From a virus (taxonomy: Duplodnaviria > Heunggongvirae > Uroviricota > Caudoviricetes), in IMG/VR virus record IMGVR_UViG_2541047897_000009: a DNA stretch of 19,720 nucleotides; one strand, 5' to 3'. The notes beneath the pieces are model-generated. The model saw nothing but the letters and a program-made list of their open reading frames with translations. It had not been told where the DNA came from and made no database searches. The translations under genes and the position numbers were made by a program. This document shows, piece after piece, positions 6,659 to 19,720 of this stretch (its first letter is position 1; every line of letters begins with the position of its first letter).

Positions 6659-7022
6659 AAATGCAGAAATGGCGCTTAGCTCCGCAATCGGAGAGCAGGT
6701 GGCAAAGATTGCTGGCGCTGTGTGGATTCATAACCTTCATTCTACTGGTGAAGAGAAAATGGCAATTCAGACGCCAGAGGGACGCACCATTACTACATCT
6801 CTGAAGGCGTCAGATGTTTGTGATCTGATTTGCGCATTCATGTACCCAGCAATGAGGACTGTCCACGGCGATAAGTGGAAACTTGCGACAACCGCTGAAT
6901 TTGATATGTGGCTAAACAATGATGGCATGCTGACTGATTACGGAATAACCAAGTGGCAGATGCTGGTTAGCCATATCGCAAACGCTATAGACCACGTGGG
7001 GTACGGTGATGCGAAACATTGA
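6651..7022 (+). CDS. Hypothetical protein (123 aa)
   Basis: GGGAGG RBS; 8-nt overlap with upstream gene; overlaps primase start. Confidence 0.6.
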   Translation: MRENAEMALSSAIGEQVAKIAGAVWIHNLHSTGEEKMAIQTPEGRTITTSLKASDVCDLICAFMYPAMRTVHGDKWKLATTAEFDMWLNNDGMLTDYGITKWQMLVSHIANAIDHVGYGDAKH

Positions 7023-9765
7023 TCTTATCCGTCAGGTTATCAGTGCGTCTGAAAACAACTGGCCTCATGTGCTGGGCTGCCTGAACATAAATGTCCCTGA
7101 CTCTCCGCGCCGTCATGCTCCCTGCCCTGCATGTGGGGGCAAAGATCGATTCCGGTTCGATGACAACGGGCGCGGTAGCTTCATCTGTAATCAGTGCGGC
7201 GCTGGTGATGGACTGGATTTAATTAAACGCGTAAATAACTGCGACACAACAGAGGCGGCGCTTCTTGCCGCTGATGTTCTGGGTATTGATTACCGGACAA
7301 CGGAAACACCAGAAGCCACCAGCCAGAAACGGGAACAACTGGAAACCGAGCGCCAGCGACGCGAACAGGAGCGCCTGAAAAGGGCAGAGAAGGACGAACA
7401 ACAAAGACGGGATACGTTTTCCCGTCAGTTTGATGACATGCGCAGAAAGGCTGTAAACGGCAAATCTGATTATCTGGTTGCGAAAGGGGTAGGTGATTTT
7501 ACATTCCCCGTGTTGCCCGATGGATCTCTGTTGCTGGCGCTGGTGGATAAATCCGGCGCAGTAACAGCAGCACAGACTATTACCTCACATGGTGAAAAAA
7601 GACTCCTGACAGGTTCAGCAAAGCGAGGGGCATATCACGCCATAAACGCACCAGAAACAACACAGAGCATCTTAATCGCAGAAGGGCTGGCAACGGCATT
7701 ATCTGCCCATTTAATTCGTCCAGAGGCGCTGACAGTGGCGGCGATTGATGCCGGGAACCTGTTATATGTCGCCCAGGTACTGCGGGATAAATTTCCTTCA
7801 GCACAAATCATCATTGCTGCGGATAACGACCACAGCGAAGGAAGACAAAACACGGGGAGAATAGCAGCAGAAAAAGCAGCTTTATCTGTTTCTGGATGGG
7901 TGGCATTACCCCCGACAGATCACAAAGCAGACTGGAATGATTACCACCAAAAACACGGCATTAAATGCGCCACAGAAGCGTTCAATAAGTCAATGTACCA
8001 ACCACAGGGTAATGGCGTGAAACAGGAGCCACAGACCATTGAGGGAAGCGATTTTAAGGTTATGGATACCGACCCACTGAAACCAAGAATAGAAAGCCGC
8101 GAGGATGGTATTTATTGGGTATCTCCGAGAGCTGACAGCCAGAGTGGAGAAATCATCAATAACGAAAGCTGGTTATGTTCTCCGTTAAGCGTTATCGGTA
8201 CTGGCAGAGACGATAAAGACCAGTATCTCATTCTTCGCTGGCTGTCGTTTGGTTCTGAAACGCCGACAACCGCTGCCATTCCACTGGCTGATATTGGTGA
8301 ACGTGAAGGATGGCGCACACTTAAAGCTGGTGGGGTAAATGTCACGACCAAAAGCAGCCTCAGAGCAATACTGGCAGACTGGCTACAACGCAGTGGCTCT
8401 CGTGAATTGTGGCGTGTTGCTCATGCCACTGGCTGGCAATGCGGAGCGTACATCATGCCTGATGGGGAAATCATCGGAACACCTGAAAATCCTGTGCTGT
8501 TCAGCGGGAGAAGCTCAGCCGCAGCCGGATATACCGTCTCAGGGAGCGCGAAAAGCTGGCGTGATAACGTGGCGCGTCTGGCCTTTGGTAACTATTCAAT
8601 GATGACCGGGATCGGCGCAGCACTGGCAGCGCCATTGATTGGGCTGGTGGGCGCTGACGGGTTCGGCATTCATTTCTATGAGCAGTCGAGCGCAGGTAAG
8701 ACCACCACGGCAAACGTGGCGAGCAGCTTATACGGCAACCCTGATTTACTGCGGCTGACGTGGTACGGAACCGCGCTGGGGCTGGCAAATGAAGCTGCCG
8801 CCCACAATGACGGACTAATGCCGCTTGATGAAGTTGGTCAGGGCGCTGATCCTGTCAGTGTTTCACAGTCTGCCTATGCGTTATTTAACGGTGTAGGGAA
8901 ACTGCAAGGCGCTAAAGATGGTGGAAACCGGGATCTAAAACGCTGGCGTACAGTGGCAATCAGCACCGGAGAAATGGATTTAGAAACATTTATCGCTACT
9001 TCCGGGCGAAAAACCAAAGCCGGGCAACTGGTGCGACTGCTGAATATTCCGTTGAGTAAAGCAGTACGCTTTCACGATTACCAGAACGGAAAACAGCACG
9101 CAGACGCACTGAAAGACGCTTACCAGCATCACCACGGCGCGTCCGGGCGTGAGTGGATTAAATGGCTGGCAGACCACCAGCAACAGGCTATTAAAACTGT
9201 TCGTGATTGCGAAAGCAGATGGAGAAGCCTGATCCCATCCGATTATGGTGAGCAGGTTCACCGTGTAGCCGCGCGATTTGCCATTCTGGAGGCCGCATTG
9301 TTGTTAGGCGAGGTTGTAACAGGCTGGGATGCTCAGACATGCCGTGATGCGATACAGCACAGCTATAACGCATGGTTGCGCGAGTTCGGCACAGGTAACA
9401 AAGAGCATCAGCAGATTATTGAACAAACGGAGGCATTTCTTAATGCCTATGGGCTTAGCCGTTTTGCACCATTTCCATACAGCCCGGCAGATTTGCCCAT
9501 CAAAGATTTAGCCGGATACCGTCAGCGTGGAGAACATGACGAAAGTCCAATGATTTTCTACACATTCCCGGCCACATTTGAAAAGGAGATCGCATGTGGT
9601 TTCAACGCAAAACAGTTTGCTGAAGTGTTGAAAAAAGCCGGGATGCTAACCCCACCAAACAGCGGTCGTGGATACCAAAGAAAATCACCACGTATTCAGG
9701 GACGACAAATAAACGTTTATGTACTCAATTACCAGCCAGGAGATTACAACTCATCTGAAGAATGA
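7009..9765 (+). CDS. Bifunctional primase-helicase, P4 alpha type (zinc-ribbon primase + Toprim + C-terminal NTPase)
   Basis: CPACGG...CNQCG zinc ribbon; Toprim-like ILIAEGLATALS ... IIIAADNDH; Walker-A-like SSAGKTT; 919-aa ORF (GTG 7006 / ATG 7009). Confidence 0.9.
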   Translation: MRNIDLIRQVISASENNWPHVLGCLNINVPDSPRRHAPCPACGGKDRFRFDDNGRGSFICNQCGAGDGLDLIKRVNNCDTTEAALLAADVLGIDYRTTETPEATSQKREQLETERQRREQERLKRAEKDEQQRRDTFSRQFDDMRRKAVNGKSDYLVAKGVGDFTFPVLPDGSLLLALVDKSGAVTAAQTITSHGEKRLLTGSAKRGAYHAINAPETTQSILIAEGLATALSAHLIRPEALTVAAIDAGNLLYVAQVLRDKFPSAQIIIAADNDHSEGRQNTGRIAAEKAALSVSGWVALPPTDHKADWNDYHQKHGIKCATEAFNKSMYQPQGNGVKQEPQTIEGSDFKVMDTDPLKPRIESREDGIYWVSPRADSQSGEIINNESWLCSPLSVIGTGRDDKDQYLILRWLSFGSETPTTAAIPLADIGEREGWRTLKAGGVNVTTKSSLRAILADWLQRSGSRELWRVAHATGWQCGAYIMPDGEIIGTPENPVLFSGRSSAAAGYTVSGSAKSWRDNVARLAFGNYSMMTGIGAALAAPLIGLVGADGFGIHFYEQSSAGKTTTANVASSLYGNPDLLRLTWYGTALGLANEAAAHNDGLMPLDEVGQGADPVSVSQSAYALFNGVGKLQGAKDGGNRDLKRWRTVAISTGEMDLETFIATSGRKTKAGQLVRLLNIPLSKAVRFHDYQNGKQHADALKDAYQHHHGASGREWIKWLADHQQQAIKTVRDCESRWRSLIPSDYGEQVHRVAARFAILEAALLLGEVVTGWDAQTCRDAIQHSYNAWLREFGTGNKEHQQIIEQTEAFLNAYGLSRFAPFPYSPADLPIKDLAGYRQRGEHDESPMIFYTFPATFEKEIACGFNAKQFAEVLKKAGMLTPPNSGRGYQRKSPRIQGRQINVYVLNYQPGDYNSSEE

Positions 9766-10536: not shown

Positions 10537-10998
10537 ATGGAACTAAAATTTATTGATAACCCTGTGCGATTACAGGCCTTTCTTAACGAGCCAGGCAATA
10601 CCGAAAATATTGTTGAGCCGGGGCACACGTACTACATCAAGCCTGATGCGGTATATCTCGGCATCTACGAAGGATTGGTGCTGGCTGGCGTTCATGAAGT
10701 GCGTAACTTCTGGCATAGCATTGTTGAATGCCATGCGGTGTACGCCCCCGGATTCCGTGGTGAATATGCACTGCAAGGGCATCGATTATTCTGCAAGTGG
10801 CTTCTCGAAAACTCACCATTCCTTAACAGCATTACCATGGTTCCTGACACCACGAAATACGGACGGGCAATTATCCGTTTGCTTGGCGCTACCCGTGTTG
10901 GTCACCTTGATGATGCTTATATCAGATGTGGTAAACCCGTCGGCGTAACGCTTTATCAGTTAACTCGGCAACAATATAAGGAATTCAGCGAATGTTAA
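10537..10998 (+). CDS. Hypothetical protein (153 aa); first gene of a coupled 4-gene operon, possibly a virion/ejection-protein assembly factor (P22 gp14-like by position only)
   Basis: Clean ORF; downstream gene start overlaps its stop (ATGTTAA). Confidence 0.65.
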   Translation: MELKFIDNPVRLQAFLNEPGNTENIVEPGHTYYIKPDAVYLGIYEGLVLAGVHEVRNFWHSIVECHAVYAPGFRGEYALQGHRLFCKWLLENSPFLNSITMVPDTTKYGRAIIRLLGATRVGHLDDAYIRCGKPVGVTLYQLTRQQYKEFSEC

Positions 10999-11669
10999 TT
11001 ACCCACATAGCTCATAAACATCTCAATCGTGCCGTATACGAAAAAGGCGGTGATGGTGGTGCCTCTAAAGCTCAGGCGAAGGCCCAGCAGCAGGCAATTG
11101 ATTTGCAGCGCGAGCAGTGGAATACGGTGATGAATAATCTCAAGCCGTATGCAGAAGTCGGATTGCCTGCTTTACAACAACTACAAGGACTGATGACTCT
11201 GGAAGGGCAGAATAAAGCCGCGAATGATTTCTTTGGTTCTGGTTTATATAAAACACAGGCAGATCAGGCCCGTTATCAGAACCTTGTCTCAGCAGAAGCT
11301 ACCGGGGGGCTTGGCTCAACAGCTACCAGTAACCAGTTATCTTCCATTGCGCCCATGCTTTATAACAATTGGCTTAGTGGGCAAATGCAAAATTATGGAA
11401 ACCTGCTAAATGTCGGGATGAATGCGGCATCAGGGCAGGCAACAGCAGGGCAAAACTACGCCAATAATACCGGGCAACTCTTGCAGGGGCTTGGCGCTAT
11501 TCGTGCAGGTCAGGCGCAGCAGCCATCCAGTCTTGCGCGTGGTATTGGTGGGGCGGCATCAGGCGCTTTAGCGGGTGCGCAACTTGGTTCCGTTGTTCCG
11601 GGTATAGGTAATGTCGCCGGGGCTATTGGTGGTGGGCTTATTGGTCTTGTTGGGGGGCTTGGATTCTAA
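10992..11669 (+). CDS. Putative virion internal / DNA-ejection protein (225 aa; P22 gp7-like by size, order and composition)
   Basis: AAGGAA RBS; Q/A-rich; glycine-zipper hydrophobic C-terminus (GIGNVAGAIGGGLIGLVGGLGF). Confidence 0.7.
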   Translation: MLITHIAHKHLNRAVYEKGGDGGASKAQAKAQQQAIDLQREQWNTVMNNLKPYAEVGLPALQQLQGLMTLEGQNKAANDFFGSGLYKTQADQARYQNLVSAEATGGLGSTATSNQLSSIAPMLYNNWLSGQMQNYGNLLNVGMNAASGQATAGQNYANNTGQLLQGLGAIRAGQAQQPSSLARGIGGAASGALAGAQLGSVVPGIGNVAGAIGGGLIGLVGGLGF

Positions 11670-13090
11670 TGGCGACATGGCAACTTGGCGGGCTGCCTAG
11701 CATGGCACCGCAAAATGATAATGCTCCTCGTTCTTCCGTTCCTCAGCCTGTGCAGTATCAGCAGCAGCCAAACGTAGGTTTAATGGCGCTACAGGGGCTA
11801 AGAGGCGTTGCTGAGATTAATCAGCAGGCACGTCAACAACAGCGTAAAGCAGAGTTTCAGAAAGCATATGCCGGGGCTTTTGAGTCTGGAGACAGAAACA
11901 AAATGCGCAGTCTTATTTCTGAGTATCCAGAAGAATTTGAAAGCGTTCAGAAAGGGATGGGCTTTATTGATGACGACCAGAGAAATTCTATTGGTCATCT
12001 TGCGACTAGTGCTCAAATCGCATCTTCGCTCGGAACTGGGGCATTTGGAAAATTCATAGCAGATAACGAAGATGAAATGCGTCGCTTGGGAATTTCTCCT
12101 GAGTCTGTTGCCGAAATGCATGTTAATGATCCACAGGGATTCCAGCGGCTTGCTGGTAGTATGGCACTGTTTTCTCTCGGTCATGAGAAGTATTTCGATA
12201 TCAAAGATCAAATGGAAGGTCGGGATATTGAGCGTGGCAAGTTGGCAGAAACAATCCGCAGCAATCAGGCTGGCGAAGCACTTCAGGCGAGAGGGCAGGA
12301 TATTAGCCGAGCAAATGCGTTAACGTCAGCATATGCACCAACAGCAGCAATGCAGAATTACAATCAGTACGCTCAAATGTTAAAGGAGGATCCAGAGGGG
12401 GCGGCGGCATTTGCGGCAGCGGCTGGAATTAATACAAACGCCAAAAAATTAATGAGTGTTAGAGAAAACGATGATGGCACTGTCACAAAATACTACACAG
12501 ACGGAAGTGAAGAGCAGGGAAAACTAAACCAGCCAATATCTGGAGATGGGTTTCGTCCAATAGCTTTGCCAACAGCCCAAAAGATCATGGAAAAGTCGCC
12601 AGAAGGGGCTAAAAAAGCTGCTGGATTTGCATACAGAGTTAGGGATGCTCTTGATTCAATGGATACACTGAAAGGCCAGCTTAGCCCACAGCGAGTGGCG
12701 ATCATTAATAATGCTTTGGGTAATGGGACGCTGGCTAACTTAACGCTCAGCCCAACAGAGCAGCAATACGTTGTTAATGCTAATGACGCAATAATGGCAA
12801 TACTCCGTCAGGAAACAGGGGCAGCTATCGTACCTGCTGAAATGTCAAAATATTATCAAATGTATTTCCCTCAGCCTGGCGACTCCACAAAAACCATTGA
12901 TACCAAGCGCCGGAAGATGGAAAACCAGTTCAATTCGCTGAAAGCTGCTTCTGGTCGAGCTTATGATGCTTTGCGGGTTATTTCAGCAGTTGACAGAGGG
13001 ACTTCTTCTTCGTCGCAGACATTGCCGCAATCTGAGCAGGTATCACAGCCAGCAGCCAGCAGTAACTTTTCTTCACTATGGGGTGATTAA
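11669..13090 (+). CDS. Putative DNA-ejection / internal virion protein (473 aa; P22 gp20-like by size and order)
   Basis: TAATG overlap with upstream gene; low-complexity Q/A/S-rich termini. Confidence 0.7.
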   Translation: MATWQLGGLPSMAPQNDNAPRSSVPQPVQYQQQPNVGLMALQGLRGVAEINQQARQQQRKAEFQKAYAGAFESGDRNKMRSLISEYPEEFESVQKGMGFIDDDQRNSIGHLATSAQIASSLGTGAFGKFIADNEDEMRRLGISPESVAEMHVNDPQGFQRLAGSMALFSLGHEKYFDIKDQMEGRDIERGKLAETIRSNQAGEALQARGQDISRANALTSAYAPTAAMQNYNQYAQMLKEDPEGAAAFAAAAGINTNAKKLMSVRENDDGTVTKYYTDGSEEQGKLNQPISGDGFRPIALPTAQKIMEKSPEGAKKAAGFAYRVRDALDSMDTLKGQLSPQRVAIINNALGNGTLANLTLSPTEQQYVVNANDAIMAILRQETGAAIVPAEMSKYYQMYFPQPGDSTKTIDTKRRKMENQFNSLKAASGRAYDALRVISAVDRGTSSSSQTLPQSEQVSQPAASSNFSSLWGD

Positions 13091-15195
13091 TGGCTAAAGC
13101 ATGGAAAGATGTTATCGCCTCTCCACAGTATCAGGCGTTAGCACCAGAACAAAAAGCGCAGGCTCAGGAGCAATACTTCAATGAAGTCGTTGCCCCGCAA
13201 GCCGGAGAAAGTGTAGCGCAGGCTAAGCAGGCTTTTTATGCTGCCTATCCACTACCATCAACGAATGAAATAGACCGATCCCAATCAGCAACTCAAAATA
13301 TTCAACATACATCATCTGATAATTCTCTTGCGTCAGGGTATGCAAAGTTAGCTACTCAGCAAAGAGAGGGGCTTGAGCGTTCAGCAGAACAGGGAGCCAG
13401 CCTTGGGGCTGCGATGCGCGATGCTATAACAGGCGAAAGCCGAATGACTCCAGAGATGGCGAGACTGCAAAATGTCGACCTTGCCCCAGAGTTAACCTCA
13501 CTCAGTATGGATGCTCTAAAAGCTCGATGGTCTCAACTTTTCGGCTCTGACGCATCTCAGGAAAAGATTCTTCAGAGCATGGGAGCGAAATTAAGGCAGG
13601 ATGAGAAGGGTAACACTATCGTTTCCCTGCCATCCGGTGATTATGCTCTGAACAAGCCGGGTTTATCGCCGCAAGACGTGGCATCGTTTCTGGCTAATGC
13701 GCTGGCGTTTACACCAGCGGGCAGGGCCGGAACGGTGCTGGGGGCCATAGGGAAATCAGCAGCTACAGATTTAGCACTACAGGGAGCCACCAGCCTTGCT
13801 GGTGGAGAAGATATTGATCCGTTACAAACGGTAATTTCTGCTGGCATTGGCGGCATTGGTAAGGGGCTGGAGAATACAGCGAGTGCGGTTTCGAGGGCTG
13901 TTCGTGGTGATATGGCACCGGAAGCGAAAGCCGCTGTTGATTTTGCATCGGAAAGAAACCTGCCGTTAATGACCAGTGACGTACTGAAAGATAAAAACAC
14001 TGTGCAGAGTCTGGCCCAGAAAACAGGCGAAAAAATCCCTTTTTTTGGAACGGGTACGAACAGGTTGAATCAACAACAGGCACGGGAAAATCTGGTCAGA
14101 ACATATAACGATGGTCTGGGAGGCATTTCAGATAAACAGCTTTATGAATCTGCGACTAAAGGGCAGCAAAAATTCATTGAGGCCGCAGGAAAGCGATATA
14201 ACCGCATAATTGACGCTATGGGGGATACCCCTGTCGATCTCTCAAACACGGTAAAAGCTATCGACAATCAGATTGCCGTGTTAAGCCGCCCGGGCAAATC
14301 TCAGGATAGAGCCGCGGTAAAAGTCTTGCAGCAATTTAAAGACGATATCACCAGCGGACCAAATGACCTGCGTCTGGCGAGAGAAAACAGAACTGACCTT
14401 CGAAAGCGGTTCATGAATTCAAACGAGACAGTTGATAAAGACACGCTCCAGAAAGCCAGCGATATTGTCTACAAGGCATATACGCTGGATATGAGAAGGG
14501 CAGTAGCCCAGAAACTGGGTTCAGAAGAAGCAGCCAATATGGCAAGGGTCGATCGCTCATGGTCTAAATTCAATGACATGATGGGAAGAACGCGCGTTCA
14601 GAAGGCAATAGCCAGCGGCAAGGCCACGCCTGAGGATGTAACAAAACTCGTTTTTAGCCAAAGCTCATCAGAACGTTCTCAGCTTTACAGGCTTCTGGAT
14701 GACAACGGCAGGCAGAACGCACGGGCAGCCATAATACAGAATGCTGTAGATAAGGCGACTGATTCGGCGGGGAATATCAGCGTTGAGAAGTTTATTAACA
14801 CGCTACACCGGAACAGAAAGCAATCCGCAACGTTCTTTAAGGGCGTGCACGGAAAGGAACTGGACGGCATTATTAAATACCTCAACGATACCAGACAGGC
14901 GGCAAAGGTTGACGGTCAGAAATTAAACAGCCAGAAACTTTATGGCCTGCTGGTTGGTGGAGGCGCTATAAATGCGGCAGTTCTGGCGGGGATGCTGAAA
15001 ACGGCTGCGTTTGTTGTTCCTGCTGCTGGTGCCGTAGGCGGAGCAGCGAAGGCATACGAAAGCCCTGTTATACGAAATGCCTTGTTACGTCTGGCAAATA
15101 CGCCAAAAGGTAGCACAGCATATGACAGAGCGATCAGTACGGTCACACAATCACTGACCACAGCAGCACAAGCATCGCAAAAGGAAGCTCAATAA
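13090..15195 (+). CDS. Putative DNA-ejection / internal virion protein (701 aa; P22 gp16-like by position)
   Basis: TAATG overlap with upstream gene; A/Q/G-rich; hydrophobic glycine-rich segment near C-terminus (GLLVGGGAINAAVLAGMLKTAAFVVPAAGAVGGAA). Confidence 0.7.
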   Translation: MAKAWKDVIASPQYQALAPEQKAQAQEQYFNEVVAPQAGESVAQAKQAFYAAYPLPSTNEIDRSQSATQNIQHTSSDNSLASGYAKLATQQREGLERSAEQGASLGAAMRDAITGESRMTPEMARLQNVDLAPELTSLSMDALKARWSQLFGSDASQEKILQSMGAKLRQDEKGNTIVSLPSGDYALNKPGLSPQDVASFLANALAFTPAGRAGTVLGAIGKSAATDLALQGATSLAGGEDIDPLQTVISAGIGGIGKGLENTASAVSRAVRGDMAPEAKAAVDFASERNLPLMTSDVLKDKNTVQSLAQKTGEKIPFFGTGTNRLNQQQARENLVRTYNDGLGGISDKQLYESATKGQQKFIEAAGKRYNRIIDAMGDTPVDLSNTVKAIDNQIAVLSRPGKSQDRAAVKVLQQFKDDITSGPNDLRLARENRTDLRKRFMNSNETVDKDTLQKASDIVYKAYTLDMRRAVAQKLGSEEAANMARVDRSWSKFNDMMGRTRVQKAIASGKATPEDVTKLVFSQSSSERSQLYRLLDDNGRQNARAAIIQNAVDKATDSAGNISVEKFINTLHRNRKQSATFFKGVHGKELDGIIKYLNDTRQAAKVDGQKLNSQKLYGLLVGGGAINAAVLAGMLKTAAFVVPAAGAVGGAAKAYESPVIRNALLRLANTPKGSTAYDRAISTVTQSLTTAAQASQKEAQ

Positions 15196-15257: not shown

Positions 15258-15656
15258 TTAACACTTGCCTTTAACATTGCCGACAAATGAGCCTGTAAAT
15301 GAGCCTATATCAGATCGACTAATTGTTCGTGTATGGATCACTTTTCCGTCATTTGAGATTGCCCATGTGACAAGCGTCAGTTGACCATCTCGATAGCTTC
15401 TTCCCATCATGGCATTCGGAGACAGCGGGTAATAATCAATACCTCCACCTATACCATCTTTTGCCAAGATAAGATCCGCCTTCTCTTTACTTATTACCAA
15501 ATGAAAGGTATCTGGTATAGATGATAACTTATAGTTATACCCATCTGAACTTGAGGCTTCTTGTCCTTTCAGATCACCAATAATCCAGCATTCAGCGTTC
15601 GCTCCAAAAGAAGCAAATAATAAACCGGAGACAACCAATCGCTTCAATTGATTCAC
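15258..15656 (-). CDS. Small secreted (periplasmic) protein, about 132-aa precursor, unknown function
   Basis: Near-perfect RBS AAGGGAGGG 5 nt before a GTG start; N-terminal signal peptide (M)NQLKRLVVSGLLFASFGANA with cleavage after ANA; Cys at both ends of the mature protein; convergent with the ejection-like operon. Confidence 0.6.
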   Translation of the reverse strand: MNQLKRLVVSGLLFASFGANAECWIIGDLKGQEASSSDGYNYKLSSIPDTFHLVISKEKADLILAKDGIGGGIDYYPLSPNAMMGRSYRDGQLTLVTWAISNDGKVIHTRTISRSDIGSFTGSFVGNVKGKC

Positions 15657-15768
15657 ACCAACCCTCCCTTTAGCGTTGTTTAGAATGGCAATCATCATAT
15701 ATCCAAGACATGGCATTTGGTACATAGCTTGGGTCGGGATTTCAAATCCGCCCCCGTTGATGGGGTCG

Positions 15769-16136
15769 TTACAGTACGCGCATATCCGCTTTATGTGAAA
15801 CAGGAAGATTTTTCTGATATCACTGCCACAGCAAAACACCAATTTCGTGACCAGTACGCGCGCGAGGGGTATCAGTTGCAAAAAGTTTTGCAACTACGTC
15901 CGACCAGTACGCGCACGATGGAGGGGAGTACCATAAAACTGTTCTCTACATAAGTCAGAGTGGTGGTGATGTGTTGATTATCGGCGTATATGCGCACAGG
16001 ACGCGCTATGACGATGTTTTATGCGGGTACACCAATCACATGATAAATCGCGTTACATGACCTCTCATGTTGTGCTGGTGGTTATCACGACGTTCTGAAT
16101 CTGGCCTTTGCCTGGTATTTTGCGACAAGTACGCGC
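15769..16136 (+). promoter_or_regulatory. Array of four direct repeats (core CAGTACGCGC) with an embedded 18-bp palindrome
   Basis: TTACAGTACGCGC 15769-15781; GACCAGTACGCGC 15849-15861 and 15902-15914 (identical); GACAAGTACGCGC 16124-16136; palindrome TTGCAAAAAGTTTTGCAA 15876-15893 between copies 2 and 3. Confidence 0.45.
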
Positions 16137-16344
16137 GCGTAGCATCGAAATAATCGGATGGCGTATGCTGCTGGTAATATGAAGACCGATAGCATTAACC
16201 GAAAGGAGAAAGACTTCTCGATAACGGCAAGGGGGCTGAATTGCGAGGCGAGATTAAGCAACTGTCTTGAACGTAAAAATCATGGAGCAACATGATGGTA
16301 CGATTCATTCCATTCTTCGTTCTTTCTGAGCATTGCGTTCAGGC

Positions 16345-16680
16345 TTAGTCAAAATTAGTGTTGCGAGCGGACCTATTAGTAATTGTTGGTGCGATGCGCC
16401 TGTTATGGATTGTTATGGTTGTGGCAGGCCTGATTAATATCCAGTATGACCACCAGCTATGAGAGGCCACCTCAGTGGTTCGCAGTTGCAGGTTTGCACT
16501 CAGGTTCGCAGGGTTTTGGCTACTTTCACGTGCGAACCTGCAGAATTGCAAAGGACAACTAAGTCCTCTGGCCAACTCCCGGTTTATGAGCGACACAGTC
16601 CGCCTGGCGCGTCGTTTTCGTCGAGTGCGCCCATCAGCTTGTCCATGGACTATCCACCACTCGATATTAAAGCTAATCAT
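16345..16680 (-). CDS. Dubious ORF (111 aa) translationally coupled to alpA2; possibly a decayed gene or non-coding structured region
   Basis: ATGA overlap with alpA2 stop, but the protein is W/R-rich and unprotein-like; two + strand frames are also open across the same stretch. Confidence 0.2.
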   Translation of the reverse strand: MISFNIEWWIVHGQADGRTRRKRRARRTVSLINRELARGLSCPLQFCRFARESSQNPANLSANLQLRTTEVASHSWWSYWILIRPATTITIHNRRIAPTITNRSARNTNFD

Positions 16681-16862
16681 TGGTTGCCAGCCCGCGAATC
16701 AAGTTTGTTCTGGATCCAAGCTTCAACCTCCTCAAGCGACCATCTAGCTGATCTACCAATTTTAACTGGCTGTGGAAACGTGCCCGTCTTAACCCATGAG
16801 TAGATTGCCGTTTTCTTGAAGCCCGTTCTGAGCATGACTTCGCTTAATTTGATAAGGCGCAT
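16677..16862 (-). CDS. alpA: AlpA-family HTH regulator (second copy, diverged)
   Basis: 61 aa; LRTGFKKTAIYSWVKTGTFPQPVKIGRSARWSLEEVEAWI; GAGGAG RBS. Confidence 0.85.
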   Translation of the reverse strand: MRLIKLSEVMLRTGFKKTAIYSWVKTGTFPQPVKIGRSARWSLEEVEAWIQNKLDSRAGNQ

Positions 16863-17114
16863 AGAGGCTCCTCTGCTTTAGATTAAGCATAGTGACAATC
16901 TGGCTTCGGGCGGTATCCAAAAGCGAGGTATCCATGTTGGTATCCACCAAAACGCTGTTTACCAAAAAAGTTACCACCGGAACAGGACATTTTGAGCTGT
17001 AACTTAACACATAGCATATGGAGTTCACGCATAGACTTCACGCACAACGGCTCCGGCCAGTGAAGAATCACCCTGGCTGGCAATATAATGCCGATCACCA
17101 TCAGAGGGGAATCC

Positions 17115-17306
17115 ATGACACCACGAGAAATCGAGCTGCTGACCATTGCCAAGCTGGAGCATGACGGCCACCAGCTCAGCCCGGCAGAACTGTGGGAATT
17201 AAGGCGCCAGCTGGCAGAGGGCCCTGTAATAGCCAGGCGGTACCGCGAAATGATGACCAGCCCCGCATATCGCTGGAGCAAACCAGCGCCGCTCCGTGCG
17301 CGGTGA
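17115..17306 (+). CDS. Hypothetical small protein (63 aa), divergent from alpA2
   Basis: AGAGGGG RBS; internal ATG 17115 preferred over 17088; TATAAT at 17084-17089 upstream. Confidence 0.45.
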   Translation: MTPREIELLTIAKLEHDGHQLSPAELWELRRQLAEGPVIARRYREMMTSPAYRWSKPAPLRAR

Positions 17307-17378
17307 GCAGCACCTAACCAGCACTAGACAAGCCCTGTGCTGGTGGATGTCCCTCATAATTAGCGGTTTTTAAACGGC

Positions 17379-17503
17379 GTGTTGGTTCACGGCCTCTTTT
17401 TGTTGGTTCAAAAATGGGGTGTGTTGGTTCACTTTTTGCGAATAATCCTTTTAAAAACAATACTCTTTACAAATTAAACCAACTGAACCAACTGAACCAA
17501 CAC
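17379..17503. repeat. Iteron block B (crr-like): inverted copy of block A
   Basis: GTTGGTTCA at 17381, 17402, 17423; spacer AACAATACTCTTTACAAAT is the reverse complement of the block-A spacer; (T/A)GAACCAAC at 17475, 17484, 17493. Confidence 0.8.
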
Positions 17504-17537
17504 CTTTTTGCTTATCTATATAGTCTGAGAGGCAGAA

Positions 17538-17825
17538 ATGATAAGGGACAGGAAAGCTGAAGAGCTGGAGTCAAAAGGGCTATGCCGGAGAGCTGCCACA
17601 CGATGGGCAGAAGTCATGACGCTGGCAGATGGCGATAAAGAACGTGAACATGCAGCAAACAGACGCTCTGAATGTATCCGTAGGGCGGCACGCCCACCAG
17701 CAACTACAGACAGATTCGGAGATTTAAGACAGGCAGTTAAGCGAACTCATTCGGCTCTTGGTATGGATGAGGAAGCGAGAGGGTACTTCAGGCGTTATCG
17801 CGATAGAGATTGCCAGAGACAGTAA
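17538..17825 (+). CDS. PerC-family transcriptional regulator-like protein (95 aa)
   Basis: AEELESKGLCRRAATRWAEVM resembles the conserved PerC/Pch N-terminal motif (from memory); GAGAGG RBS. Confidence 0.65.
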   Translation: MIRDRKAEELESKGLCRRAATRWAEVMTLADGDKEREHAANRRSECIRRAARPPATTDRFGDLRQAVKRTHSALGMDEEARGYFRRYRDRDCQRQ

Positions 17826-18236
17826 TGCTCTCTCTGTTTTGGCAAATTACCCCTCACTTTGAAGGGATCGGAGCTATAAAAATGGTTTTAGGTACATTCC
17901 TCAAATTGAGGATTGTGGAAAAACCAATGGGTTAGGCTTTTCCCCCAATGGGGGTTTTCGAAAGAATCAATGGGTTAGGTCATCGTGCAAATTTGCACTC
18001 TGCCAGCCAACGCAATTTTTCGTTGGCGGAAATATCAGGTATTTACTGAACGAACGGTCTGCCCGTCTGTTCAGTTACCAGTTTCACATGGCTGTTTTAT
18101 GTGAGGCCGGAAGGTTTTTCGGACATCACTATTGGGTACAGCAATTTCGCGAGCAATACGCACGCGTAACAAATATGCCTAGCATCTTAGCTATGTGCTG
18201 ACAAATTGCGATACTTCCCATCCTGTATTGTGTTTG

Positions 18237-18698
18237 TCACCAGTGCCTTAGAGTTTCATAATTCATAACTGCTATGGCGATCTCCAGCTTAGTCGTTTCA
18301 AGTATTTCTTCACATAAGACCAGATCATGAATGATGTTTTTGAGTAGCTCCTTATCGATTGCTCCATCAGCCACCCAAACTGCGATGTTTTCCATTTCTC
18401 GCACAAAAAGTTGTACACAATGGCCAAAGCCATTTATCTCAAGAAAGTATGTTGAAAGGGCGATGCTTGATCTTTTATTTCCGTCACTAAAAGCATGGAA
18501 TTTATTGATTGCAAAGAACAAGTGACTTAGTTTGTCTACAAATCCTGGGTAATACCAGTCGTTTTGGATATGCTCAAGGGCACTCGCCAGTACCCCTTGG
18601 TCTCTGATTCCGTGTAAGCCGCCCGTTTTCTCAATGATCCAATCATGAACCCTAATGGCGTGTTCAATATCAAAATAATTGAATTGTATATCGTCCAT
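18237..18698 (-). CDS. Fic/Doc-family protein (death-on-curing-like toxin; 153 aa)
   Basis: Fic/Doc core motif HAFSDGNKRSS (H-x-F-x-D-G-N-K-R); GGGGG RBS 5 nt upstream; 8 bp downstream of partner gene on the same strand. Confidence 0.85.
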   Translation of the reverse strand: MDDIQFNYFDIEHAIRVHDWIIEKTGGLHGIRDQGVLASALEHIQNDWYYPGFVDKLSHLFFAINKFHAFSDGNKRSSIALSTYFLEINGFGHCVQLFVREMENIAVWVADGAIDKELLKNIIHDLVLCEEILETTKLEIAIAVMNYETLRHW

Positions 18699-18706
18699 TT
18701 ATACCC

Positions 18707-19720
18707 CTATCGGTCTTTTAGTCTTTTGAACACTTCTAGGGTTTCTGGGTCGTTCAGGCGCTCTTCAAGTGATTTACTTTTCTCACCCAAGAAACGTTCA
18801 AAGTCCCCTTCAGGTACAGCTCTTACGTAAGCTTCAAGTTTTTCATGCAGCGCATCTCTGAAACAGAGATCCCTACTTGCCATTTTGGTTCTGGCATCTA
18901 GCATCATAGGCTTAAACAATGGATGAGATTCAAATTGTTTAAAAATAGCTTCTGCTTCCTGTTGTGTCAGTTTTCTGCCTAAACGAGAGAATTCTTGTTT
19001 TAATTCATGTGCAATACCTGATTCGAAACCTGCAATAAGAGTTAGAGCTTCGGAGTACATTGTGTCCCGGATTTTCTCTTTTTGAGCAAGATTCAATACC
19101 TTGCGGTACTCGGCCGCGTCTTCGTGGAAAATACTTTGATACACAAGGTTGGTAAACCTTGCATACTTCCAATTATTCCCTTCGACGCATTCATCTAAGG
19201 CATCAGTGAATTGCTTGCGATAGCTTTCTTCTTGAAAAGAAGCCAATAGGTAATTCTCATCACGTTGGTTGATGTACTTGGTATGTCCACCAGCCCTTTC
19301 GGCTAAAGTATCAATGACAATATCAAGCAGGCGCGTACGTATAATCTTGGCTTGCTCACTTTCGACCAGTAGCATGGCGAAGTTCAGGACAGCTCGGTAA
19401 TTAAACACTCCAATAGTAGGAGCCTTGTTACCCTCATTGATGAAGGAGACATGCTCTAACCCTTTGAATTCTTTTAGCTCTCTCCCTTTTATAAGTCGAT
19501 AACCATTGCTCTTGAGTTCATTGCTATGATTGGCGATATACCGTTCCACAGTGGCATCGCTTATACCAAAAATTTCCATAAGTTGACTTTTTGTAAAAAG
19601 TCGTTCTCCATTGAACTCAACTCCACCAAGAGCAAGATGTTTTTCAGCTTGTCGGAGTGCATAGGAGTTGTTCAGAATATTTTGTCTGTCATGAGCGGAG
19701 GTTGTTAAATCTTTAGCCAT
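18707..19720 (-). CDS. RhuM/DinD-like protein (337 aa), upstream partner of the Doc-like gene; start coincides with the window edge
   Basis: AT-rich ORF; overall pattern resembles RhuM-family proteins that commonly pair with Fic/Doc genes (from memory, unverified); stop TAG 8 nt before Doc ATG. Confidence 0.6.
   Translation of the reverse strand: MAKDLTTSAHDRQNILNNSYALRQAEKHLALGGVEFNGERLFTKSQLMEIFGISDATVERYIANHSNELKSNGYRLIKGRELKEFKGLEHVSFINEGNKAPTIGVFNYRAVLNFAMLLVESEQAKIIRTRLLDIVIDTLAERAGGHTKYINQRDENYLLASFQEESYRKQFTDALDECVEGNNWKYARFTNLVYQSIFHEDAAEYRKVLNLAQKEKIRDTMYSEALTLIAGFESGIAHELKQEFSRLGRKLTQQEAEAIFKQFESHPLFKPMMLDARTKMASRDLCFRDALHEKLEAYVRAVPEGDFERFLGEKSKSLEERLNDPETLEVFKRLKDR

Follow-up and report, generated by a model that had tools for sequence, protein, structure and literature searches.

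The window analyzed here, a stretch of 19,720 nucleotides from the IMG/VR virus record IMGVR_UViG_2541047897_000009, ends with two minus-strand genes that form a tight operon, as the original prediction had described. The first, gene A (19720..18707, WP_001582533.1), codes for a protein of 337 residues; its ATG takes up the window's final three bases, and the start annotated in RefSeq is identical. The second (18698..18237, WP_001582532.1) codes for a 153-residue Doc-family protein with a Fic fold, which we presume to be the toxin and effector of the pair. The two open reading frames (ORFs) are separated by 8 bp (GGGTATAA on the coding strand, 18699..18706, minus strand), and a Shine–Dalgarno-like AGGGG run overlaps the stop codon of gene A. 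This arrangement suggests translational coupling. The run makes a reasonable ribosome-binding site, though not one of consensus sequence. The AT-richness ascribed to the pair is real but mild, with a GC content of 0.409 in 18167–19720 vs 0.479 in the remaining window. Neither gene is a chance ORF: homologues of protein A number more than 6,500, with E values as low as 1e-216, and the two genes are conserved together. Scans for promoters and terminators returned nothing beyond the shuffled expectation, and an Rfam scan of 17300–19720 gave no match.

The 153-residue protein was assigned by comparison with several profiles. It scores 50.6 bits against the Pfam family Fic (PF02661; cut-off 24, E = 3.5e-13) and 44 bits against TIGR01550 DOC_P1 ("death-on-curing family toxin"; cut-off 38.65, E = 2.1e-11), matches the Doc-like toxin of PHROG (2e-17), and aligns with the solved structure of Doc from phage P1 (1.3e-5). 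NCBI names it a type II toxin–antitoxin (TA) death-on-curing toxin. The catalytic HxFxDGNKR loop is intact, as the original prediction had stated: residues 68–76 (18471..18497, minus strand) read HAFSDGNKR. The same motif is kept in 87 of 88 Doc orthologues, with HMLQDGNKR as the exception. By its sequence, this protein is a member of the Doc subfamily with the kinase-type loop HxFx(D/N)(A/G)NKR. In this loop a lysine replaces the second glycine of Fic, so that it reads NKR instead of the NGR of AMPylases. The Doc toxin of P1 phosphorylates elongation factor Tu (EF-Tu).

Doc lies directly downstream of A and on the same strand in 78 of 80 species-level loci (GTDB); the other two contigs end after A. 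Both genes are intact in 75 of the 78 loci that can be judged, and three are frameshifted. A metagenome search anchored on Doc instead of A gave the same picture, with A present in all 57 loci with room upstream. The gap between the genes mostly ranges from −4 to +12 nt (88 loci with both genes intact), and pairwise identity in A correlates with that in Doc (r = 0.82). Even in full-length relatives of A at 34–37% identity, a Fic gene comes next. Two distant members (L158 197–1150 and L160 4001–5050; 35–39% identity) have no Doc or Fic gene downstream, and these may be orphans or may have another partner.

The way in which the pair decays is asymmetric. Four loci (L021, L043, L074, and L150) carry a frameshifted Doc next to an intact A, and in one locus both genes are broken. 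An intact Doc with a broken or absent A was found in none of the linkage and Doc-anchored loci. Since A is about 2.2 times longer than Doc, it should be disrupted more often under neutrality; we estimate a chance of about 0.01 that Doc alone would take all four of the single-gene disruptions. This is the pattern expected of a toxin and its antidote.

Protein A belongs to a family with a near-fixed length of about 337 residues and members in many phyla. Identity is 70–74% among E. coli, Vibrio, Shewanella, and Thiothrix, and 50–57% in Campylobacterota, Desulfobacterota, Bacteroidota, Ignavibacteriota, Acidobacteriota, Spirochaetota, and Planctomycetota. No Pfam or NCBIfam family matches A above threshold; HTH_17 gives a sub-threshold match, and 12 of 31 family members match ORF6N weakly in a Pfam scan. 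A single-sequence AlphaFold2 (AF2) prediction was poor, with a predicted local distance difference test score (pLDDT) of 42, and was replaced by an alignment-based model with a pLDDT of 85.7 and a predicted template modeling score (pTM) of 0.77. In this model, two N-terminal helices bear an invariant RQNxLNN motif and are followed by a winged helix-turn-helix, a long connector helix, a helical body, and a low-confidence C-terminal tail. The winged helix-turn-helix (about residues 31–120, 19361..19630, minus strand) resembles ORF6N/KilA-N domains and is predicted to bind DNA. Among the matches listed, the closest solved fold is that of DdrC, a DNA-damage-induced, DNA-binding nucleoid-associated protein (PMC9303277). 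The sequence of A is conserved along its whole length, with many invariant polar residues. We dropped an HEPN-like reading of R288-x3-H292, since this spacing does not fit the HEPN motif Rx4–6H and no HEPN-described entry appears among the listed fold matches.

The C-terminal tail of A (residues 321–337, 18710..18760, minus strand) is modeled by AF2 with pLDDT values of 45–58, yet it is as conserved as the remaining protein. It ends in FKRLKDR, and the motif RLK[DEN][RK] lies at most one residue from the C-terminus in 119 of 119 distinct sequences. The strongest covariation between the two proteins connects N323 of A with W20 of Doc, and 14 of the 100 strongest pairs fall in this tail, a weak signal at an effective sequence number (Neff) of about 54. 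The ending DFERFL...KRLKDR also echoes the Doc-binding C-terminus of the antitoxin Phd, EFASLF...KELVNR. Conservation, covariation, and this likeness make the tail a candidate Doc-neutralizing element, an assignment that we treat as a lead only. A match of the A C-terminus to the PDB entry 9ycf_G ("cb13") was discarded as a generic match to designed helical sequence, since that chain carries an ENLYFQS TEV-site tag and the remaining matches of the same search bear the names of designed proteins. There is a precedent for such an element in PanA(Phd-C)–Doc, where a modular Phd-C element neutralizes Doc (Ernits et al. 2023, PMC10440598). The A–Doc pair is alike in concept, with a large folded accessory or sensor domain and a short terminal element that would neutralize Doc. 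It differs in that A has no Panacea/DUF4065 domain and in that we infer the neutralizing role of its tail.

To describe the neighborhood of the pair, we examined 49 loci with at least 4 kb of sequence on both sides, and identified genes by Pfam and PADLOC. Restriction–modification (R-M) components occur within about 6 kb in 26 of these loci. In 19 of the 49, the pair is sandwiched on the same strand between an upstream methylase or specificity gene and a downstream restriction gene. The upstream neighbors are mostly HsdM and HsdS, and the downstream neighbors are HsdR, type III Mod/Res, or an Eco57I-like methylase with an SNF2 helicase. Other immediate neighbors are DRT UG5, PsyrA, mad1, and an OLD-type ATPase. 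One A homologue, P0129 (639 residues), contains a C5 cytosine DNA methylase (4–193) joined to a full A-family region (300–638); whether this is a real fusion or two genes merged in the calling, it links A with R-M genes. Outside chromosomes the family is scarce, with one full-length A in 72,556 plasmid records and 13 loci on viral contigs.

The pair matches a candidate system in the PADLOC collection. PDC-M59A matches A over its full length (E = 2.9e-103) and PDC-M59B matches Doc (3e-30). PDC-M59 stems from the "guilt-by-embedding" screen of Payne et al. (preprint, 10.1101/2024.01.29.577857), and the R-M embedding that defined such candidates is reproduced in our loci. The preprint lists three families. 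A search downstream of Doc for a third conserved gene was negative, both here and in 80 other loci. The occurrence of DOC genes inside R-M loci was proposed as a form of multilevel defense in 2013 (PMC3710099).

We read A–Doc as an autonomous 1.75-kb cassette of the toxin–antitoxin type, most likely serving phage defense by abortive infection, and we put the probability of this reading at roughly one half. By analogy with P1 Doc, free Doc would halt protein synthesis by phosphorylating a conserved translation factor, EF-Tu or another. Protein A, co-translated with Doc, would hold the kinase inactive, probably through its C-terminal tail, much as the C-terminal helix of Phd blocks the active site of Doc. 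More speculatively, the winged-helix domain of A may sense infection, either from DNA that is foreign or damaged or from a phage protein, and couple this signal to the release of Doc. A Fic-fold effector in defense has a validated counterpart in SoFic, a single-gene Fic-domain defense protein (PMC12249575), and like SoFic, Doc is presumed to act by abortive infection. The two are nevertheless distinct: with a limit of E ≤ 1, the only PADLOC models that Doc matches are PDC-M59B, PDC-S23, PDC-S04, and PDC-S05, with no SoFic model among them, the Doc loop is of the kinase-type NKR and not the AMPylase NGR, and the partner is different.

Several observations weigh against this interpretation. PADLOC PDC systems are explicitly unvalidated (10.1101/2024.01.29.577857; 10.1101/2025.01.08.631726). 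Table S8 of the preprint (10.1101/2024.01.29.577857) gives PDC-M59 as a three-family cassette that includes FAM_00939 and marks a two-family sub-cassette as "Reject", with family identifiers that are not mapped to A and Doc. A literature search for PDC-M59 and for Doc with anti-phage activity found no mention of PDC-M59 and no experimental work on the pair. About half of the well-flanked loci (23 of 49), and this window as well, have no R-M genes nearby. There is no detectable sequence similarity between A and Phd, a search of the PDB with the A C-terminus finds no Phd, and the ending common to both proteins is a short motif only, while the covariation between A and Doc rests on about 54 effective sequences. 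Mean pairwise identity is also higher for A (55.5%) than for Doc (52.2%); an antitoxin seldom shows this, and it hints that A plays a further role or another one. Finally, the scan found no clear sigma-70 promoter upstream of A, and frameshifts in metagenome assemblies may be sequencing errors.

The closest characterized relative of the pair is Phd-Doc of phage P1. Both systems combine a Doc fold and its HxFxD(A/G)NKR loop with a presumed antitoxin gene that comes first and is tightly coupled, and the partners end alike (NKELVNR in Phd, FKRLKDR in A). In keeping with the Phd/YefM-Doc type, A–Doc is an antitoxin-first bicistronic operon with obligate co-occurrence in all 78 judgeable species-level loci. 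The similarity ends with the partner. The original prediction was correct that the upstream protein is large and not of the Phd type: A has 337 residues vs the 73 of Phd, the family scan found no PhdYeFM match (PF02604) in A, and the upstream gene is not the small antitoxin of that family. Unlike Phd, A has a predicted winged-helix and helical architecture and is more conserved than the toxin. The setting differs as well, since A–Doc resides on chromosomes and in R-M loci and not on plasmid prophages.

Doc toxins with small Phd antitoxins are a textbook case of plasmid addiction. The pair might be a plain type II TA addiction module, in which A is an autorepressing antitoxin and Doc a post-segregational killer that stabilizes the island or the R-M operon without any role against phages. 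The NCBI name of Doc, the antitoxin-first order with its tight coupling, the asymmetric decay, and the helix-turn-helix N-terminus of A would all agree with such a module, and a position at the edge of a mobile island would suit a stabilizing function. We nevertheless consider it unlikely. Addiction modules thrive on plasmids, yet full-length A is nearly absent from plasmid records (see above), and a uniformly conserved antitoxin of 337 residues, with more conservation than its toxin, does not fit this type; neither does the strong embedding of the pair in R-M and defense loci. The regulatory space upstream of A also argues against it. Only closely related enterobacterial loci have upstream sequence in common, with no conserved operator beyond them, and in many loci coding sequence runs right up to A; the distance from the start of A to a same-strand ORF upstream is within 60 nt in 24 of 72 species-level loci. 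Since A thus has no space for a promoter or operator of its own in about a third of the loci, it is unlikely to be an autorepressor alone. Were the pair no more than an addiction module, one would still have to explain why it is nearly absent from plasmids and why the antitoxin is so extremely conserved.

Since A is more conserved than the toxin and a third of the loci lack a private operator, A appears to do more than a Phd-type antitoxin, and a speculative extension is that A senses DNA or a phage factor. In its boldest form, A would be a pan-bacterial nucleic-acid sensor that releases the Doc kinase upon binding foreign or broken DNA, such as phage genome ends or restriction products. We hold this version to be rather doubtful, but it would explain the position behind hsdS in R-M operons of many phyla, the missing operator, and the conservation of A above that of the toxin. 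If true, it would amount to a direct DNA-triggered toxin–antitoxin immune switch built on a new protein family.

Another possibility is that the pair backs up R-M systems in the manner of PrrC, an anticodon nuclease embedded in the EcoprrI type I R-M locus. Protein A would then dock on the R-M complex or monitor its activity, and disabling of the R-M enzyme by a phage anti-restriction protein would free Doc. In many loci A–Doc indeed occupies the slot between hsdS and hsdR, and Doc, like PrrC, is presumed to be a suicide effector that targets translation. The 19 sandwiched loci, with the pair between hsdM/hsdS (or Mod, or the Eco57I-like methylase) and the restriction subunit, reproduce the prrC slot, the homologue P0129 is joined to a C5 DNA methylase, and multilevel defense by R-M and DOC has been proposed (PMC3710099). 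The effector chemistry differs, however, and A–Doc also occurs without R-M genes, as in this window and the 23 well-flanked loci mentioned above. All 21 copies that we found in E. coli adjoin perC and not R-M genes. Since the R-M partners belong to unrelated types (I, III, and IIG-like), a specific contact between A and an R-M protein is unlikely, and we judge this mechanism improbable as a whole.

We give similarly little credence to a purely regulatory pair, in which Doc would phosphorylate or NMPylate A or another DNA-binding protein and, for example, time the expression of neighboring genes after horizontal transfer. The very high conservation of A with its many invariant polar residues, the similarity of its fold to nucleoid-associated DdrC (PMC9303277), and the co-evolution of A and Doc could be read in this way. 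However, the neighboring genes vary from locus to locus, which leaves no common regulatory target, and the Doc loop is of the type of an EF-Tu kinase. The asymmetric decay fits toxicity, and while some distant A-like genes stand alone, an intact Doc has never been seen alone.

The first reading of the locus had been a RhuM-family protein paired with Fic/Doc. At the level of the protein family this is largely refuted. None of 31 A-family members, A included, matches Pfam Virulence_RhuM (PF13310) at E ≤ 1, whereas a genuine RhuM used as control scores 9.2e-95. The probability returned by hhalign is 8% for A against a single bona fide RhuM and 14.9% for the A alignment against a RhuM alignment; the latter match covers 80 columns in the winged-helix stretch (A 33–129, RhuM 146–231) and leaves the C-terminal ~200 residues of A unaligned. 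The N-termini differ too, since RhuM and DinD have a Bro-N domain, and A shows ORF6N and HTH_17 signals with no Bro-N. Because the RhuM alignment is shallow (at least 77% identity), a very remote homology remains conceivable, and this weak local match, the similar size and R-M-embedded lifestyle, and the RhuM–Fic adjacencies and RhuM–DOC fusions known elsewhere (PMC3710099) speak for the RhuM reading, but next to these profile results we find it very improbable. The resemblance between A and RhuM, as far as the sequences tell, is one of lifestyle and not of family: proteins of this size with an N-terminal DNA-binding module, found in R-M loci and next to or fused to Fic/DOC (PMC3710099). A relation to DinD was rejected, since hhalign gives a probability of 0.1% for A against E. 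coli DinD, which has the Bro-N domain alone; dinD is the chromosomal gene that flanks the integration site. A real RhuM–Fic association was seen on a Bacteroides finegoldii plasmid (L095 2871–5356), where a genuine RhuM (Bro-N and PF13310) lies directly 3′ of a gene for a 375-residue Fic family protein. Next to them are a HipA pair and the gene for a large "ATP-binding protein", which is accompanied by a PP2C phosphatase gene, and the locus looks like a defense or TA cluster.

With these alternatives in mind, the abortive-infection cassette can be placed among known systems. A Doc toxin in a two-gene module and TA-based defense in R-M loci are already known, and the pair itself has been catalogued as an unvalidated PADLOC candidate. 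New in comparison to characterized systems are the partner family A, its extreme conservation and breadth, and the clean, portable E. coli instance on a satellite-like island. Here the partner to which a kinase-type Doc is locked has 337 residues and belongs to a family without a Pfam entry; it keeps 50–74% identity from Enterobacteria to Planctomycetota and has R-M operons and the cargo slots of mobile islands as its preferred homes. If A–Doc is a defense module, it would be among the most widespread that await testing and would link R-M to a translation shut-off by protein phosphorylation, and the compact, easily cloned 1.75-kb example from E. coli would serve to study how a large antitoxin senses infection.

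The island that carries this example could be delimited by comparison with complete genomes. At 99.9% identity, the window region matches E. coli strain P4 (NZ_CP072688.1), where it corresponds to exactly one integrated island with yicC on one side and dinD on the other. Each end carries a copy of an imperfect 24-bp direct repeat, CGTGTACATA[GA][AG]GGTGTACATAAT. In the extended locus L001 (window coordinate = L001 coordinate − 2601), the copies lie at 2521–2544, 58 bp before the integrase gene, and at 22528–22551, 207–230 bp beyond the window end. Further GTACA-containing repeats are found near the left attachment site (attL). The A–Doc pair is the last cargo inside the right attachment site (attR). 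The original prediction allowed for further partner genes outside the window, but extension reveals only 191 bp of cassette remainder, then attR, and then chromosomal dinD. Since the pair is the last cargo inside attR and the next gene, dinD, is chromosomal, there is no partner gene beyond the window.

As the prediction had it, the pair belongs to the accessory part of the island and lies at its distal end as cargo. The edges of the cassette were determined by blastn of L001 against the sibling islands L153 and L155. Homology stops at L001 20767 (window 18166) and restarts at 22513, which defines a clean insertion/deletion of 1,745 bp (L001 20768–22512 or NZ_CP072688.1 70136–71880, equal to window 18167–19720 plus 191 bp) that ends 15 bp from attR and stands in place of 69 bp in the sibling island. 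Its left end in the window, 18167..18236, is the 3′ flank of Doc. Of 5,426 complete E. coli genomes, 21 have the pair; every copy is chromosomal and contains both genes, and there are two allelic forms. By way of the perC region we found four sibling islands for examination, all without the pair. Three of them occupy the same site and pass from perC straight to attR and dinD. The fourth (L156, E. coli 97-3250) has the same perC end but adjoins paoD and a truncated LysR gene; since it lies beside paoD instead of dinD, this island family must use more than one integration site.

The genes of the island are arranged in the order integrase, AlpA-like helix-turn-helix protein, AntA/B, ash, primase, P22-type ejection proteins, PerC, Doc, and A. 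With an integrase (1–1254), attachment-site repeats, and a replication module all present and the A–Doc pair inside the element, the context is consistent with a putative satellite or an element like the phage-inducible chromosomal islands (PICIs). The primase (7006–9765) combines Zn-ribbon, Toprim, and DUF927 domains and is P4-alpha-like. The region 10537–15195 (plus strand) codes for homologues of P22 ejection proteins, namely DUF2824, gp7 (PF25688, 2e-72), gp20 (Inj_translocase, 6e-58), and a 701-residue protein in the position of gp16. Besides these, the island holds the integrase, regulators, and the primase, and the RefSeq features of the window include no capsid, terminase, or tail annotation. 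By its gene content the island resembles a satellite that would supply its own ejection proteins. Several of its ORFs are without any family assignment.

The siblings differ from each other upstream of perC. Two of the four carry an "Abi family protein" there, and one carries an ImmA/IrrE peptidase with a hypothetical protein (L153 3407–4369, L156 3380–4357, and L155 3504–4367). Because this cargo varies, the island family seems to have a second variable slot of the defense type, which corresponds to about 15900–17400 in the window. The window ORFs in that slot (15258–15893, 16345–16680, and 16883–17281, all on the minus strand) gave no Pfam or PADLOC match. An exact 12-mer, CAATGGGTTAGG, occurs twice on the plus strand, 43 bp apart (17925–17936 and 17968–17979), where 0.1 occurrences would be expected by chance. 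Both copies lie 3′ of perC in the part shared with the siblings, outside the A–Doc cassette.

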